IMG/VR virus record: IMGVR_UViG_2778261567_000021
From: a virus
Taxonomy: Duplodnaviria > Heunggongvirae > Uroviricota > Caudoviricetes
DNA: 6,394 nt
Strand: one strand, 5' to 3'
The notes under the pieces were generated by a model. It was not told the DNA's origin. It made no database searches and saw only the letters and a program-made list of their open reading frames with translations. Below are positions 2,920-6,394 of this stretch, piece by piece. Numbering within the stretch: position 1 is the first letter of the stretch; every line of letters starts with the position of its first letter. A program made the translations under genes and the position numbers.

Positions 2920-3153
2920 TTATTCTCCGGTGTGCTGTTCGTTATATCTGTCGTGCAATTGGTCTATTTCTTGTAGTTCCATTATTACAGGCTCAAGAAG
3001 CGTTATTAATGCCGTGACAATTCTTGATTTTTGTTTGTCGCGTTCATTGTCGCCAAGTGTTTCAAGCCATATGCGCAATATTTCCATCATATTTTCACTG
3101 TGAGAAAGTGCAAGAAATACGCGATCTGTTGTTTCGTGGTAAATATCACGCAT
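2920..3153 (-). CDS. Hypothetical protein (77 aa)
   Basis: ATG at 3153 lies 1 nt after the previous stop, with a GGGG-rich sequence upstream. Acidic product MRDIYHETTDRVFLALSHSENMMEILRIWLETLGDNERDKQKSRIVTALITLLEPVIMELQEIDQLHDRYNEQHTGE. Co-oriented and tightly spaced within the operon. Confidence 0.5.
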   Translation of the reverse strand: MRDIYHETTDRVFLALSHSENMMEILRIWLETLGDNERDKQKSRIVTALITLLEPVIMELQEIDQLHDRYNEQHTGE

Positions 3154-3154
3154 A

Positions 3155-3376
3155 TTAATCCCCGTCCGTCGCTTTTCTTAAAATAACCTCTGTCACGAAA
3201 TCAGCATAGTTAGCGGCAATATCAAGAATATTTAGCCCTGTATCTCTGTGCTCATCAGTGCAAAGAAAGAAAAAAGCCACCCGCATAATTTCAGATATTG
3301 ACGAAAGCGCATCAGCCGCATCATCAGGAACGCCGGAAAATTCTTGTTTCAGGGAATTAAAACGATCATCACGCAT
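3155..3376 (-). CDS. Hypothetical protein (73 aa); possibly the C-terminal part of a protein fused with 3349..3609
   Basis: ATG at 3376 lies 2 nt after the G9 run, which could double as a G-rich SD. Product MRDDRFNSLKQEFSGVPDDAADALSSISEIMRVAFFFLCTDEHRDTGLNILDIAANYADFVTEVILRKATDGD. Its stop TAA (3155-3157) is 1 nt from the next start. Confidence 0.5.
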   Translation of the reverse strand: MRDDRFNSLKQEFSGVPDDAADALSSISEIMRVAFFFLCTDEHRDTGLNILDIAANYADFVTEVILRKATDGD

Positions 3377-3609
3377 AACCCCCCCCCATTTTCACAATCA
3401 GCAATCAGGATAGCTTTGGCCTCATTCAGCGCCATATCAGCACTAAGTTGCATAACCGCCAGCGAATGAGGAACGAAAGCCCCTGCATATTCTGTTTCAC
3501 TGGTGGCGTGCTTATGCGCCCTGTCAGCAATAACAGAAATATCAATAAGCGCGTGCATCAGCGTAGTGAGCGCGGCGGCTGCTGCGTCCGGTGTGGTTTT
3601 ATTGCACAT
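3349..3609 (-). CDS. Hypothetical protein (86 aa); possibly the N-terminal part of a longer protein split at a homopolymer
   Basis: ATG at 3609 with a strong SD (AGGAGG 6 nt upstream, lying inside the preceding ORF). The C-terminus (…ENGGGLCVMIVLIP) is encoded across the G9 run and overlaps the next ORF by 28 nt in another frame. Confidence 0.5.
   Translation of the reverse strand: MCNKTTPDAAAAALTTLMHALIDISVIADRAHKHATSETEYAGAFVPHSLAVMQLSADMALNEAKAILIADCENGGGLCVMIVLIP
3379..3387. repeat. Homopolymeric tract C9 (G9 on the coding strand) at the junction of two ORFs
   Basis: Nine consecutive C at 3379-3387. The minus-strand ORFs 3349..3609 and 3155..3376 differ by one frame across this tract. 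Confidence 0.9.
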
Positions 3610-3805
3610 GGCACACCTCCTGACGAATACGGGCGGCGAATACCATCACGCAGCCAGCCGGGGATTGCAGGCGTGCTTCCTGTTCGCTGGCGGCCTCAAT
3701 GGTAATCACGCGCGGTTGTGCCGTGCTCAGGGCGATAAAACGCCAGATGTATTTATTCAGGTTGTGCGAGTCCCGCCCTTGCGGGTGTGTGGTATGATTT
3801 AACAT
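3599..3805 (-). CDS. Hypothetical protein (68 aa), first gene of the minus-strand operon
   Basis: The ORF track shows a 305-aa ORF 3599..4516, but only the 3' part is credible. The internal ATG at 3805 is preceded by GAGGT 5 nt upstream (minus strand CGAGGTAGCT-ATG). Product MLNHTTHPQGRDSHNLNKYIWRFIALSTAQPRVITIEAASEQEARLQSPAGCVMVFAARIRQEVCHVQ. Its stop overlaps the start of the next ORF by 11 nt. Confidence 0.5.
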   Translation of the reverse strand: MLNHTTHPQGRDSHNLNKYIWRFIALSTAQPRVITIEAASEQEARLQSPAGCVMVFAARIRQEVCHVQ

Positions 3806-3901
3806 AGCTACCTCGATACGCTTTCTATCGTTGGTGGTTAGAAGCCCGGTTAGTGTTAGCGCACTGCCGGGTTTCGTCGTTTCTGCACCTTGCATCAACA
3901 A

Positions 3902-3955
3902 GGTGTTGAACACCAATTTAAGCCCTGGTGTTAAACACGTCAAGTGTTGAACACT
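3902..3955. promoter_or_regulatory. Three palindromic operator-like sites GTGTT-N-AACAC in a divergent promoter region
   Basis: GGTGTTGAACACC (3902-3914, 13-bp palindrome), GTGTTAAACAC (3928-3938) and AGTGTTGAACACT (3943-3955, 13-bp palindrome). An extra AGTGTT half-site lies near 3851-3856. They sit between divergently oriented genes (minus-strand ORF starting at 3805, plus-strand RHH ORF starting at 4005). Confidence 0.55.
3916..3943 (-). promoter_or_regulatory. Candidate sigma70 promoter for the minus-strand replication operon
   Basis: On the minus strand: TTGACG (3943..3938), 16-nt spacer containing operator 2, TTAAAT (3921..3916). It lies back-to-back with the plus-strand promoter. Assigned by eye only. 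Confidence 0.3.
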
Positions 3956-3975
3956 TATTTTTTTTCCTGCATACT
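3947..3975 (+). promoter_or_regulatory. Candidate sigma70 promoter for the RHH cassette
   Basis: TTGAAC (3947-3952), 17-nt spacer, CATACT (3970-3975). The -35 element lies inside operator 3. Assigned by eye only. Confidence 0.3.
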
Positions 3976-4004
3976 GCATTTGTTTTTTGTAAGGGGTACA
4001 CAAC

Positions 4005-4184
4005 ATGGCGACAAAAGCAGTAAACGCAAAATCACAAACAGTTGCGGCAAGGGTTCCGCATGAAGTTATGAACAATGTTGAGGCGGTAAAAATGCCTGGT
4101 GAAAGTACAGGGCAGTTTGTAACAGCAGCATTAAAGCGAGAAGTTGAATACCGCCAGCGTCGCAAGGCCAAAGAGCAGGAATAA
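4005..4184 (+). CDS. Small ribbon-helix-helix (CopG/Arc/MetJ-like) DNA-binding protein, 59 aa
   Basis: Absent from the ORF track, presumably for being under the length cut-off. ATG at 4005 is preceded by AAGGGG at 3991-3996 (8-nt spacing); stop TAA at 4182-4184. Product MATKAVNAKSQTVAARVPHEVMNNVEAVKMPGESTGQFVTAALKREVEYRQRRKAKEQE shows the RHH signature: a beta-strand (AARVPHEV), helix, G-x-S/T turn (GESTGQF), and second helix (VTAALKREV). It lies immediately downstream of the palindromic operators. Confidence 0.55.
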   Translation: MATKAVNAKSQTVAARVPHEVMNNVEAVKMPGESTGQFVTAALKREVEYRQRRKAKEQE

Positions 4185-4241
4185 CCATCACCAGCGCCGT
4201 GGTGTAAGGTATTACGGCGCATTGCTATGCAGGACAACACA

Positions 4242-4415
4242 ATGACCGATAAAGAATTGACCAAAACATTATCACCGGCACGGAAAAGACGGCGCAGAAA
4301 GATAGAGCATGAATCAGAAAGATTCGCGCCATGTGCTTTTGCCCTTGAGCAATTCCTTAAAGAGTACAGGGAAACGCGCCCATTGCAGGTATGGCAACGA
4401 ACTGAACCAGACTGA
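4242..4415 (+). CDS. Hypothetical small basic protein (57 aa; KRRRRK motif)
   Basis: ORF track gives 4227..4415. The second in-frame ATG at 4242 is preferred because AGGA at 4230-4233 lies 8 nt upstream. Product MTDKELTKTLSPARKRRRRKIEHESERFAPCAFALEQFLKEYRETRPLQVWQRTEPD. It follows the RHH ORF on the same strand and is closed by the terminator at 4480-4508. No family recognised. Confidence 0.4.
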   Translation: MTDKELTKTLSPARKRRRRKIEHESERFAPCAFALEQFLKEYRETRPLQVWQRTEPD

Positions 4416-4479
4416 TTGCATTGCCCACCAGCCTGATAGCGGCTATCATCCCCGTGCTTATGTTTAGTGTTTTCCCATT

Positions 4480-4508
4480 GGCGACCGCCCCCGGTCGCCT
4501 TTGTTTTA
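4480..4508 (+). terminator. Rho-independent terminator of the plus-strand small-ORF cassette
   Basis: Perfect 8-bp GC-rich stem GGCGACCG (4480-4487) / CGGTCGCC (4492-4499) with a 4-nt loop CCCC, followed by TTTGTTTTA on the plus strand. On the minus strand the hairpin is followed by AAUGGGAAA, so it is mainly unidirectional. Confidence 0.65.
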
Positions 4509-4526
4509 TGTGTCATATGCTCCCCT

Positions 4527-4736
4527 TTACACTGCCTTACCTGAATTAATGCGATCCCGGCTTTTAACCCATTCCATAACCTCGGACAGCAGCCACCCTA
4601 CAGAACGACCGCCCAGATTAAGACGTGACGGAAAGCTCCCTTTTTTCTCCAGTTCGTAGCGTGTAGTGCGACACACTCCAGTTAACTTACGACATTCATC
4701 CTCACGGATTACGCGATCTTCATTTATTTCACGCAT
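4527..4736 (-). CDS. alpA: AlpA-family (Vis/Xis-like) transcriptional regulator / excisionase-type HTH protein, 69 aa
   Basis: The 69-aa product MREINEDRVIREDECRKLTGVCRTTRYELEKKGSFPSRLNLGGRSVGWLLSEVMEWVKSRDRINSGKAV matches the AlpA pattern (…TG.sR.T.Y…P….lG.rsVGW…E…W, about 70 aa). The ORF track extends it to 4823 with a GTG start (98 aa), but the extension is AT-rich and AlpA proteins are about 70 aa, so the ATG at 4736 is preferred. It sits directly downstream of int in the same orientation. Confidence 0.75.
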   Translation of the reverse strand: MREINEDRVIREDECRKLTGVCRTTRYELEKKGSFPSRLNLGGRSVGWLLSEVMEWVKSRDRINSGKAV

Positions 4737-5155
4737 ACAAAAACCTACATAAAAATTACGTATATAAACTTTTCTCTTAGCTGTAGATATATGAGATCGG
4801 ATATTACTTAGATTCTTTTTCACCTCTTAAATTAAAAACACAACCATGCTAAAGGCTTTGTTCGCTAAGGTTCGTAGAAGCTCGTTAGTGTTTAAAATCG
4901 TGTCACGAGTTTTTAAGCGACGCAACAAAAAATGTCGTCATTTGGCATGACACCTTAATTACCTCATTAAAAACAAATAGATAAACTATCAGGTGTTGGA
5001 ACAATCAAGAAACAGAGAATAAGAACTCAGAAGAAGACATTTCAATTTTTTTCGATAGTTGACACATATAAAGAGAAGATATTTGCAGATATTCCCCGAT
5101 ATTCTAAGATCTATTCACGGCTGTAATCTCTTAAAGAAAAAACAGCCGTAATTTG

Positions 5156-6394
5156 TCAAGAATTTTGGGGGTAAATTCGCGGGGTCATAACAACGATTTT
5201 TTCATCATTGTTCTGGAGAAGCTCGAGACGGTCTACCCATAGATTAAGAGCATCACGTTTTGCATCAAGGTAGCGGGAGTGGTTATAGACTCGTTGCATC
5301 CCTGGCATCTGGTGGGCTGTAAGCTGCTCGACAATATGCGGATCCACGCCTAAATCGTTCAGCATGGTTGTAAATGTGTGCCGGATATCGTGTAACGTCC
5401 AGGGGGCTTGATTAATTCGTCTGTGCGCTGTTCTTCCGTACTCTGCTACCGAAGATTGTCCTTTCAGTTCACCAAGCAATAAGCCTGAGTGTCTGTTCTG
5501 CTCCACCAGTTGCGTGACGAACGGCAAAATGCTTTCCGGTATTGGCCTGAATATGGCGACCTTCGTTTTGCTGTGCTCCTTCGGTACTGTCCAGAGCATT
5601 TCTTTAAAATCCCACTCCTGCACCTCAGAGCGCCTTAGCTCAGTGGTACGGCATCCAAAAACAATCAGGAGGCGAATTAGGGCGCTGTAGTATGGCGGGA
5701 ATATTTTGTCATCCAGGGCGCGGAGTAATTCCCCAAGCTCCTTATTTGTTAGTACGCGCTCGCTCACTTCTGCTTTTTTTCCCACATCACCGACAACCAT
5801 ATCATCAAGAACGTTGCTGATTGCGTATCGTCGTTTTCGGCAGTACTTAAGCGCCTGTTTGCATACCTGTAGCAAAAATCCGGCAGATACAGGGCTTCGC
5901 TTTGCCATCTGGTCAAAACATGCCAACCAGTGCCGTAGCTCGCATTTTTCCAACGGCAAAGCGCCAATCTGGCTGATTATGTGTTTATTGATCCGGCTTT
6001 TCAGTGATTCGTAGTCAGTGCGCTTTTCCTTTGCATACGATTCAAGCCAGTAAGTGAGCGCTTCCTTAACTGTCACGGGGGCTAACGCATCCTGTACAGC
6101 ACGATTAAGCTCATAGCGCGGATTTTTCCCCTCAGCCAGCCAGGCGCGACACTGTGCTGCTTTTTCCCTGGCTGCTTTCAGGCTCAGATCGGGATAATTG
6201 CCCAGTCTCAGACGTTCCGGTGATACCTGCCTACCAGTTCCGGCCCTGTAAGTGAAATACCAGGTTAACAGGCCGCTGGTGGAATGTCTTACGCTAAGAT
6301 TGCCACCGTCATTAAAAAAGGCGTTTTTTGTGGTTGGTGATCCGCTTAATTTTCGTAAAAGAGTGTCGCTAAGTCTATGAATTGCGCTGCTCAT
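5156..6394 (-). CDS. int: Tyrosine site-specific integrase, P4 family (412 aa)
   Basis: ORF of 412 aa. The C-terminal catalytic region carries the HxxR box (HDIRHTF) and the tyrosine nucleophile motif (RVYNHSRY). The N-terminal region (GNLSVRHSTSGLLTWYFTYR...) resembles the arm-binding domain of P4/CP4-57-type integrases, recalled from memory. The ATG sits exactly at the window edge, so an upstream extension cannot be excluded. Confidence 0.93.
   Translation of the reverse strand: MSSAIHRLSDTLLRKLSGSPTTKNAFFNDGGNLSVRHSTSGLLTWYFTYRAGTGRQVSPERLRLGNYPDLSLKAAREKAAQCRAWLAEGKNPRYELNRAVQDALAPVTVKEALTYWLESYAKEKRTDYESLKSRINKHIISQIGALPLEKCELRHWLACFDQMAKRSPVSAGFLLQVCKQALKYCRKRRYAISNVLDDMVVGDVGKKAEVSERVLTNKELGELLRALDDKIFPPYYSALIRLLIVFGCRTTELRRSEVQEWDFKEMLWTVPKEHSKTKVAIFRPIPESILPFVTQLVEQNRHSGLLLGELKGQSSVAEYGRTAHRRINQAPWTLHDIRHTFTTMLNDLGVDPHIVEQLTAHQMPGMQRVYNHSRYLDAKRDALNLWVDRLELLQNNDEKIVVMTPRIYPQNS

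Follow-up and report, generated by a model that had tools for sequence, protein, structure and literature searches.

A small predicted ribbon-helix-helix protein and its putative operators at the internal promoter of E. coli phage satellites (PICIs)

Analysis of a 6,394-nt stretch of a Gram-negative phage satellite, a PICI (IMG/VR record IMGVR_UViG_2778261567_000021; hereafter, the window), revealed a previously uncharacterized 59-aa protein with a predicted ribbon-helix-helix (RHH) fold and three candidate binding sites for it, located on the predicted internal promoter for the toxic and replication genes. On sequence evidence alone, this protein probably provides the repressor that this class of elements was thought to lack. 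The window has the int-alpA-(variable zone)-primase/replication gene order, whereas the packaging genes lie outside it, and it is 93% identical over 90% of its length to the island of E. coli IHE3034. The same module was found in the model islands EcCICFT073 and EcCIIHE3034. Gram-negative PICIs are common and move virulence and defence genes: 1776 of 5426 complete E. coli genomes match the query 3600-4520 that spans the RHH and icd-like genes.

Putative operators and promoters of the divergent region

A sequence-only reading of the window had reported three copies of the palindrome GTGTT-N-AACAC plus a half-site between the replication operon and a divergently transcribed RHH-like gene, and its observation was borne out. 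The palindrome occurs exactly three times (3903-13, 3928-38, and 3944-54), and a pattern search for GTGTTNAACAC with up to one mismatch finds only these three sites in 6394 bases, compared with a mean of 0.21 in shuffled sequences, of which 0 of 200 reach three sites. Allowing two mismatches adds a single chance-level site at 4888; the boxes are confined to this intergenic region and are not found near alpA or int.

The first putative operator, O1 (GGTGTTGAACACC, 3902-3914), lies just downstream of the -10 element of the minus-strand promoter and covers its predicted start site; a box at the same position is present in all related loci. The second, O2 (GGTGTTAAACACG, 3927-3939, with the core GTGTTAAACAC at 3928-3938), fills the spacer of this promoter and abuts its -35 element. 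Its position is fixed at -77 from the ATG of the RHH gene in 26 loci, where it is followed by the motif [ACGT]TCAA (CGTCAA in 19 of the 26 loci, including the window). The third, O3 (AGTGTTGAACACT, 3943-3955), overlaps the candidate -35 element of the RHH gene's own promoter and touches the -35 element of the minus-strand promoter. A box at this position is shared with two related loci, L002 and L006, and a degenerate copy is present in L003, whereas in most relatives the third box is located just after the plus-strand -10 element.

The sequence-only reading had also claimed that both promoters overlap the palindromes, and this is confirmed for the minus strand. A consensus scan identified the predicted internal promoter of the icd-like/replication operon (3915-3943, minus strand), which consists of TTGACG (3943-3938), a 17-nt spacer, and TAAATT (3920-3915), with an inferred start site near 3908; the -35 element and a TAnnnT hexamer retain their positions in loci with unrelated boxes. 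The candidate promoter of the RHH gene (3947-3975, plus strand) consists of TTGAAC (3947-3952), a 17-nt spacer, and CATACT (3970-3975); it was read from the sequence, matches the consensus at only 8 of 12 positions, and is below the scan threshold. However, a -10-like TATACT, CATACT, or TATAAT is conserved at the same position, about 35-40 nt before the ATG, in all relatives, and the start site is inferred near 3982. The half-site was reported without coordinates. Its most likely candidate, GTGTT at 3853-3857, is not an operator, as it lies in the loop of an sRNA terminator hairpin and remains unchanged in loci whose operators differ.

The plus-strand transcription unit includes the RHH gene (4005-4184) and a 62-aa ORF, orf62 (4227-4415), which matches phrog_21027 (3e-16), is annotated from Met6 in EcCICFT073, and is absent from the non-E. 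coli loci. A predicted intrinsic terminator at 4480-4508, with an 8-bp stem containing 7 G-C pairs followed by TTTGTTTT, ends this unit before alpA (4527-4736, minus strand). The AlpA product, an activator/excisionase homolog, was identified by Pfam Phage_AlpA (3e-16) and by the RefSeq annotation of an identical gene in the related locus L001.

Predicted fold of the 59-aa protein and its co-variation with the boxes

The 59-aa protein belongs to the YlcI/YnfO family (NCBIfam NF041551; 59.7 bits against a cut-off of 30, over the whole profile). The sequence-only reading had expected an RHH fold, and the AlphaFold2 model of the monomer (pLDDT 82.6) shows the strand-helix-helix topology of about 45 residues, with a strand at about residues 11-18, helix A at 19-28, a G32-E-S turn, and helix B at 35-58. 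The turn, which corresponds to the G-x-S/T/N turn of this fold, is invariant in 39 sequences. The strand combines variable polar residues at positions 12 and 14 with hydrophobic residues at 13, 15, and 17, a pattern that fits a dimer with a two-stranded antiparallel sheet inserted in the major groove. The fold is not supported by sequence matches to known RHH proteins: Pfam gave no RHH family at E up to 0.1, only a sub-threshold Med10 match, and a profile search of PDB sequences returned only designed nanocage chains at E about 1. The best structural matches of the model are RHH antitoxins, namely TacA2, CopA_SO, MazE6, and VapB12. Together with the toxicity of Icd/Kil-type cell-division inhibitors and the relation of the neighboring sRNA to the type I antitoxin SymR, these matches could suggest that the RHH protein is mainly an antitoxin-like partner of the Icd/Kil-like toxin in an addiction or abortive-infection module. 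We consider this unlikely, since the protein has only a short basic tail after helix B and no toxin-binding domain, Icd varies independently of the RHH protein, and the operon proposed to be repressed carries the primase and replication genes.

Comparison of about 30 related satellites revealed that the boxes keep their positions, whereas their sequences change with residues 11-15 of the protein. Of 58 locus pairs whose strand residues 9-18 differ at no more than one position, 54 share the box, whereas none of the 267 pairs with more different strands share it (Mantel r 0.62, p 2e-4). The strand KKLEA is accompanied by the same GTGTCAGCCAC box in E. coli, Xenorhabdus, and Pectobacterium. The window protein has the strand QTVAA and the box GTGTTGAACAC, the EcCICFT073 protein has QALKA and GTGTGGCCCAC, and the protein of another E. 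coli relative, L040, has QSVTA and GTGTAAGACAC. The latter locus carries a natural cassette swap: its identity to the window is 95.2% over 3700-3906, 54.9% over 3907-4098 (the operators, both promoters, and RHH residues 1-31), and 95.3% over 4099-4184. The operators and the N-terminal codons lie within 100 bp of each other, and thus part of their co-divergence is linkage. There are also exceptions: L030 and L032 share strand residues but have different boxes, and L004 and L005 have the QTLAA strand with a CTGTCGAACAG box in a different context.

Other candidate readers of the boxes were examined, including AlpA, whose binding had been named beforehand as an outcome that would contradict the proposed role of the RHH protein. 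AlpA activates the EcCICFT073 genes downstream of alpA (PMC6092414), and alpA is always nearby. However, AlpA proteins that are 91-98% identical (L014 against L030 and L032) are adjacent to unrelated boxes, whereas AlpA proteins that are 25-31% identical (the window, L002, L003, and L006) are adjacent to the same box, and box positions in the spacer and at the start site suit repression rather than activation. Thus, AlpA is excluded by this comparison, and we regard it as a very unlikely reader. The PHROG label "transcriptional repressor" for the Icd-like family suggested Icd as another candidate, but this label originates from the legacy "cI gene product" CDS of P4, and Icd is identical at 59/67 positions in a pair with different boxes and differs in a pair with the same boxes; Icd was therefore rejected as the reader.

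It is also unlikely, in our opinion, that the 59-aa ORF is not a gene and that its conservation and the repeats are by-products of the long ORF on the opposite strand, or of another factor such as a helper-phage or host protein. The minus-strand frame is indeed open in most loci, the depositors of vB_KppS-Ant annotated only the long ORF, and both frames share wobble positions, so that substitution patterns discriminate poorly. Nevertheless, the RHH frame is better conserved in 86 of 91 pairs (identity 0.649 against 0.593, BLOSUM 3.37 against 2.64), gives a confident RHH model, and has its own ribosome-binding site and ATG, a conserved -10 element, and a terminator. The antisense translation is rich in Cys, Ser, and Thr and looks unlike a folded protein. 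The existence of several box classes within E. coli alone argues against a host factor.

Predicted antisense sRNA and nested ORF

Two further layers, both missed by the sequence-only reading, were identified in this region. First, 3802-3885 (plus strand) encodes a predicted SymR-related cis-antisense sRNA with two hairpins and a U-tract that is complementary to the ribosome-binding site, start codon, and leader of the icd-like gene. Its extended -10 element, TGgTATGAT, lies at 3790-3798 inside the icd coding sequence; the ends of the RNA are inferred, with a start near 3804. Across 25 loci, 26 base pairs are 96.3% paired, 16 of them show compensatory changes, and 0 of 500 shuffles match this. 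The strand is indicated by 107 G-U cells on the plus strand against 1 on the minus strand, and the fold has an energy of -36.5 kcal/mol (z -4.7). The Rfam symR model (RF01809) hits the window at 32.8 bits (E 0.0025), and the scores obtained, 32.8, 28.5, and 28 bits, are below the gathering score of 61. Conversely, a covariance model built from the satellite loci finds the annotated K-12 symR at 36.3 bits (E 6e-8). Rfam gave nothing at the gathering level in the window, and no C4 or isrK match at E up to 1.

The similarity of the sRNA loop AGUGUUAGCGCACU to a box, the repeated RNA sequences of P4 immunity (PMC10111431), and the terminator-like score of O1 on the minus strand raise the possibility that the repeats act as RNA, either as seqA/seqC-type targets in the leader paired by an immunity RNA or as hairpins or terminators. 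This seems very unlikely: (i) O2 and O3 are upstream of the predicted start of the internal promoter, (ii) non-palindromic boxes occur in both orientations within one locus (in L040 and in another related locus, L018), which changes the RNA sequence but not the double-stranded DNA site, (iii) the sRNA loop does not change when the boxes change, and (iv) the C4 and isrK models find nothing in the window.

Second, a 305-codon minus-strand ORF (3599-4516) begins next to alpA, with the ribosome-binding site AAGGGGAG and an ATG 10 nt after the alpA stop, an arrangement of translational coupling. This eta-like ORF runs antisense through orf62, the RHH gene, the operators, and the sRNA, and is in frame with the icd-like gene (3599-3805, minus strand), a Kil-like 68-aa gene that is the first in the replication operon, starts at ATG 3805, and has the ribosome-binding site GAGG at 3814-3811. 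The Icd-like protein matches NCBIfam NF033153 at 68.8 bits, and the P4 kil region carries the same domain at 73.9 bits. We initially considered the long ORF a chance or annotation artefact, but rejected this reading because the frame is open across divergent loci. It has no stops across the intergenic region and the RHH antisense in 21 of 28 loci, and no stops in the 118-nt promoter/operator segment in 16 of 17 representative loci (P about 0.03-0.1 for each), which fits, but does not prove, a role of its translation in preventing Rho-dependent termination. Starts with ribosome-binding sites were observed in other loci. The layout of P4 eta (197 codons) and kil (65 codons), described in PMC10111431, was confirmed in the P4 sequence and resembles that of the window.

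Proposed regulation and comparison with known systems

We propose, with fair but not full confidence, that the 59-aa protein is a dimeric RHH repressor, and that each 11-13-bp box is one binding site. In this model, the invariant residues S10 and R16 probably read the conserved outer GTG...CAC, whereas the variable residues, mainly 12 and 14, probably read the center of the box. Occupation of O1 and O2 would block the internal, PLE-like promoter that otherwise drives the toxic Icd/Kil-like gene and the primase operon, and occupation of O3 (or, in most relatives, of a box at the start site) would autoregulate the RHH gene. The SymR-related sRNA, constitutive in this view, would be a second lock that covers the icd ribosome site. 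Induction would bypass both locks, as in phage P4: AlpA-driven transcription would enter from upstream, be kept alive by translation of the eta-like ORF, read through the operators, and run antisense across the RHH gene. The computational analysis establishes the fold (as a model), the conservation of the boxes and their co-variation with the protein, the promoter geometry, the structure and strand of the sRNA, and the maintenance of the open reading frame, whereas dimerization, DNA binding, repression, the transcription starts, and the read-through bypass are inferred.

The interpretation given by the sequence-only reading is thus supported only in part. The RHH fold, the conservation of the palindromes in homologous islands, and the absence of a named repressor in the Gram-negative PICI literature (PMC6092414) agree with it. 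A role as the master repressor of the island is not shown, since the boxes occur at a single intergenic region and the published induction runs through AlpA. As AlpA over-expression alone induces EcCICFT073 (PMC6092414), the RHH protein cannot be an absolute block. The contrast with the RNA-based immunity of P4 was overstated, as the same region encodes a predicted SymR-related antisense sRNA against the first gene of the operon and lies inside an eta/kil-type nested ORF; the control logic therefore appears to be a P4-like frame with a protein repressor added rather than a protein switch that replaces the RNA.

A more far-reaching possibility, which we regard as tentative, is that the RHH protein is the missing immunity repressor of Gram-negative PICIs, and that recombination exchanges its reading head and operators together as a cassette, creating heteroimmune satellite lineages within one host species. 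The antisense embedding of the gene in a translated anti-termination ORF would then be deliberate, and AlpA-driven read-through would simultaneously silence the repressor by convergent transcription, sweep it off its operators, and translate past the sRNA-blocked icd start. Such a three-layer switch of protein, antisense RNA, and nested ORF has not been described for any satellite.

The founding paper on these elements describes only the activator AlpA and states that a global repressor is unclear (PMC6092414), and literature searches found no paper on a PICI RHH repressor. In EcCICFT073 and EcCIIHE3034, the gene carries late, out-of-series RefSeq locus tags and only a family name; thus, we infer that published reporter and deletion work probably did not take it into account. 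Repression of the internal promoter by the RHH protein, if it takes place, would explain how the toxic Icd-like gene and the primase stay silent, give a testable basis for compatibility between satellites sharing a cell, and provide about ten natural pairs of protein strand and DNA box for studies of RHH recognition or construction of orthogonal repressors. The SymR link also suggests where the chromosomal symR RNA came from.

The YlcI/YnfO (DUF3950) proteins of the cryptic prophages DLP12 and Qin belong to the same NCBIfam family (YnfO scores 36.6 bits) and share with the window protein the RHH-like pattern R-x-P, helix, G/N-x-S, helix. Their genomic context differs, as ynfO lies next to nohA and ydfO with no icd-like gene, and no functional paper on YlcI or YnfO was found. 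The Stl/Rpr master repressors of SaPIs and other Gram-positive PICIs are likewise encoded divergently from the excision and replication genes, but their genes lie on the int side, and they control the whole element and are relieved by helper-phage proteins (PMC6092414). Stl/Rpr are much larger, non-RHH proteins. Here, the gene lies between alpA and the replication genes, inside an ORF, and the published inducer pathway is AlpA.

The SymE/SymR system of E. coli K-12 also includes a cis-antisense RNA, over the 5' end of an SOS-induced toxin gene. Both RNAs are about 77-85 nt with two hairpins, and in both the promoter lies inside the coding sequence of the target and the RNA covers its ribosome site (PMC1891008; in the window, by prediction). 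Here, however, the target is an Icd-like protein rather than SymE, the context is a satellite rather than the hsd/mcr locus, and the proposed protein repressor is the RHH protein rather than LexA. In the immI region of phage P22, the small RHH repressors Mnt and Arc act on operators overlapping the divergent promoters Pmnt and Pant and are combined with the short sar antisense RNA that covers the ribosome site of a gene in the repressed operon, an organization similar to that proposed here. No sequence relationship is known, and the satellite has one RHH gene, which lies antisense inside the putatively translated ORF, and three to four short boxes rather than a single 17-21-bp operator; its operon encodes Icd/Kil and a primase, not an antirepressor.

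The left operon of satellite phage P4 (PLL, vis, eta with nested kil, internal PLE, and the CI immunity RNA) has a comparable layout: the AlpA/Vis homolog is followed by a long ORF in the coupled arrangement, the C-terminal 65-68 codons of this ORF form a separately started Icd-like/Kil gene, a promoter (predicted in the window) lies inside the long ORF, and an RNA controls kil expression, by inference in the window. P4 has no RHH gene, since tblastn of the RHH and Icd proteins against 50,697 phage records found only vB_KppS-Ant, and no SymR-like sRNA, and it uses CI/seqA RNA from the same strand, whereas the SymR-like RNA of the window is on the opposite strand and a putative protein repressor and its predicted operators are located on the internal promoter.

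Genetic context and the palindromic boxes

The analyzed sequence of 6394 bases is the left part of a Gram-negative phage-inducible chromosomal island (PICI). Its minus strand carries an integrase (5156-6394) and alpA (4527-4736, Pfam Phage_AlpA 3e-16), followed further along the same strand by an Icd-like gene (3599-3805), several small ORFs, a DUF4222 gene, and a D5_N/DUF5906 primase-helicase (864-2618). The sequence is 93% identical over 90% of its length to the island of E. coli IHE3034 that was studied by Fillol-Salom et al. 2018 (PMC6092414). The ORFs at 3349-3609 and 3155-3376 on the minus strand match the first and second halves of a single PHROG profile (phrog_2512, 154 positions). They are separated by a run of nine C on the plus strand (3379-3387), and one extra base would fuse them, suggesting a possible sequencing error, pseudogene, or slippage-prone tract. 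The region downstream of the primase gene (about 600-860) contains many copies of GGTAGACA and GGTAGATA-like words in both orientations, and is probably the iteron-type replication origin described for PICIs. The Rfam int-alpA RNA motif (RF02996) was found above its gathering score between int and alpA in two related loci (L003, 6853-6921, and L007, 6893-6961) but not in the studied sequence.

The three palindromic boxes reported by the sequence-only reading are present as described: O1, GGTGTTGAACACC (3902-3914); O2, GTGTTAAACAC (3928-3938); and O3, AGTGTTGAACACT (3943-3955). The pattern GTGTTNAACAC occurs three times against 0.21 expected, none of 200 shuffles reaches three, and no further copy occurs above chance anywhere in the studied sequence. 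The promoter scan identified TTGACG (3943-3938), a spacer of 17 nt, and TAAATT (3920-3915) on the minus strand; thus, O2 fills the spacer, O1 covers the predicted start site, and O3 abuts the -35 element. The candidate promoter of the 59-aa gene, TTGAAC (3947-3952), 17 nt, CATACT (3970-3975), overlaps O3 but matches the consensus in only 8 of 12 positions.

The predicted RHH protein and its co-variation with the boxes

The 59-aa ORF matches the NCBIfam family YlcI_YnfO_N at 59.7 bits against a cut-off of 30, whereas searches for a Pfam RHH family and for a related PDB sequence gave no match. We identified 74 homologs of this protein across Enterobacterales. Their alignment revealed invariant residues S10, R16, H19, G32-E33-S34, and Q37-F38, and a variable patch at residues 11-15. 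An AlphaFold2 model (pLDDT 82.6) has an extended segment followed by helices at 19-28 and 35-58. The RHH fold proposed by the sequence-only reading is therefore supported, at the level of a monomer model.

A scan of one genome per species returned 36 loci. In nearly all of them, the gene order is int, alpA, a variable stretch, the RHH gene on the opposite strand, and then an icd-like gene leading towards a primase. Comparison of the 230 nt upstream of the RHH gene revealed the same layout everywhere: (i) a box is located about 100 nt before the ATG, (ii) a box at -77 is directly followed by [ACGT]TCAA (CGTCAA in 19 of 26 loci), which on the minus strand is the -35 hexamer (TTGACG in those loci), and (iii) a third box is located either at -62 or just after a conserved -10-like TATACT.

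The box sequence differs between lineages and tracks residues 11-15 of the protein. The QT[VLI]AA residues go with GTGTTGAACAC, KKLEA or RKLEA with GTGTCAGCCAC, QSLKS or QALKA with GTGTGGCCCAC, KRFDV with GTGTC[CG]GACAC, QKLQA with GTGGACTCCAC, QKMSA with CTGGCACCCAG, and QSVTA with GTGTAAGACAC. Among 325 locus pairs, 54 of the 58 pairs with near-identical strands share the box, whereas none of the 267 pairs with different strands does (Mantel r 0.62, p 2e-4). The outer GTG...CAC of the box is mostly constant, as are S10 and R16, while the center of the box varies with residues 12 and 14. This pattern is expected if alternate strand residues face the DNA, as inferred from the general properties of RHH proteins.

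Linkage alone does not explain this co-variation. The studied sequence and the E. coli locus L040 are 95.2% identical over 3700-3906 and 95.3% over 4099-4184 but only 54.9% identical over 3907-4098, a stretch that is exactly the putative operators, both promoters, and RHH residues 1-31. The predicted reading head and its sites have been exchanged as one cassette. The KKLEA strand goes with GTGTCAGCCAC in E. coli, Pectobacterium, and Xenorhabdus, in otherwise dissimilar loci. AlpA, considered as an alternative reader of the boxes, is uncoupled from them: it is 91-98% identical in pairs with unrelated boxes and 25-31% identical in pairs with the same box. The Icd-like protein is also uncoupled from the boxes. 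Non-palindromic boxes occur in both orientations within one locus (L040 and L018, another of the related loci), which fits a site on double-stranded DNA and does not fit an RNA motif.

An antisense RNA and a nested long ORF in the same region

Two further layers of the region were missed by the sequence-only reading. The first one is an antisense sRNA. Rfam gives a weak SymR match at 3806-3878 on the plus strand (32.8 bits, gathering score 61), and the same match recurs in two relatives. An alignment of 25 loci supports a two-hairpin RNA followed by a U-tract, with 26 pairs that are 96.3% paired and 16 pairs showing compensatory changes; none of 500 shuffles reaches these values, and shifted-register controls reach only 35-48%. 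There are 107 G-U cells on the plus strand and only one on the minus strand, and thus the RNA is read from the plus strand. The copy in the studied sequence folds at -36.5 kcal/mol, z -4.7. An extended -10 element (TGgTATGAT, 3790-3798) inside the icd coding sequence would start the RNA near 3804, so that the RNA (3802-3885) would cover the icd start codon (3805-3803) and ribosome-binding site (3814-3811). The additional operator half-site suggested by the sequence-only reading is likely GTGTT at 3853-3857, which lies in the loop of the second hairpin and does not change with the boxes.

A covariance model built from these loci finds the annotated symR of E. coli K-12 (L045, 5825-5922; 36.3 bits, E 6e-8) and finds nothing in P4. 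The satellite RNA and the chromosomal SymR antitoxin RNA thus find each other in both directions, and SymR has the same geometry (PMC1891008). SymR may derive from this satellite RNA family, which is not captured by Rfam. In the E. coli CP028381 locus (L042), a second tandem module (3038-3364) lies between the first RHH gene and alpA. It includes another copy of the sRNA (62.3 bits) followed by a different 59-aa RHH-like gene, which scores 20 bits on the YlcI/YnfO model (below the cut-off) and has its own palindromes, TGTGTATATACACA.

The second layer is a nested long ORF. The minus-strand ORF 3599-4516 is open for 305 codons and is in frame with the icd-like gene. Its ATG lies 10 nt after the alpA stop, behind AAGGGGAG, suggesting translational coupling to alpA. 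The ORF runs antisense through orf62, the RHH gene, the boxes, and the sRNA. The orf62 gene (4227-4415, plus strand) encodes a basic 62-aa protein (phrog_21027, without known function) predicted to be co-transcribed with the RHH gene; it is conserved in E. coli PICIs, including EcCICFT073, and absent from the other genera. The long frame has no stop across the intergenic region and the RHH antisense in 21 of 28 loci, while the other two frames carry 2-12 stops. In the 118-nt promoter/operator segment, it is open in 16 of 17 representative loci, the chance of that being about 0.03-0.1 for each locus. In a 99.8% identical genome (L001), RefSeq starts the Icd-like gene at a GTG inside O1 (3602-3913, minus strand) and classifies 4186-4516 as an 'Icd-like pseudogene fragment'; both annotations look like by-products of the long open frame.

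This arrangement is the design of phage P4 and matches its nested eta/kil genes, for which the work of Forti et al. is summarized in PMC10111431. We confirmed in the P4 sequence an in-frame ATG cluster at the vis stop (197-199 codons) and a second ATG with a ribosome-binding site 65 codons before the stop, and found that the P4 ORF carries the same Icd-like domain. The RefSeq record of P4 (L046, 8168-8584) still carries the legacy CDS 'cI gene product, transcriptional repressor', although cI is an RNA, which probably explains why PHROGs labels the Icd-like families phrog_6196 and phrog_1743 as 'transcriptional repressor'. The third codon positions of the RHH gene and of the antisense frame coincide, and thus the two can coexist. 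The RHH frame is the better conserved one in 86 of 91 pairs.

Proposed mechanism and comparison with known systems

In the most likely mechanism, the RHH protein would occupy O1 to O3 in the resting island, shutting the internal, PLE-like promoter and limiting its own synthesis, whereas the sRNA would block any icd translation that escapes. In this view, the toxic Icd/Kil-like protein and the primase operon stay off. After entry into a new cell, no RHH is present, and the internal promoter could fire briefly until RHH accumulates. On induction, AlpA-dependent transcription (PMC6092414) would enter from alpA, be protected by translation of the eta-like ORF, cross the RHH gene in antisense, and read into icd and the replication genes. 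The boxes, their co-variation with the protein, the RNA structure, and the open frame are results of sequence comparison; all functional roles, including DNA binding and repression, are predictions, and the induction steps are inferred from the anatomy of the locus and from P4. The sequence-only interpretation is therefore supported in part: the predicted fold and the co-variation of the protein with the boxes are upheld, but the term 'master repressor' is not justified, since the boxes are confined to this region and AlpA over-expression alone induces EcCICFT073.

EcCICFT073 itself encodes the module: its RHH has strand residues QALKA, the boxes are GTGTGGCCCAC, and the eta-like frame is open for 367 codons back to alpA. 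RefSeq assigns only a family name to the RHH gene, and in the vB_KppS-Ant phage it is not annotated at all. Literature searches revealed no paper that links PICIs with an RHH protein and none that assigns a function to YlcI or YnfO. RHH repressors acting on promoter-overlapping operators have been described in other systems, P22 Mnt and Arc being the classic case. The module described here differs from these by (i) its setting in Gram-negative PICIs, (ii) the swappable cassette of predicted specificity, (iii) the antisense embedding in an eta-like ORF, and (iv) the pairing with a SymR-family RNA.
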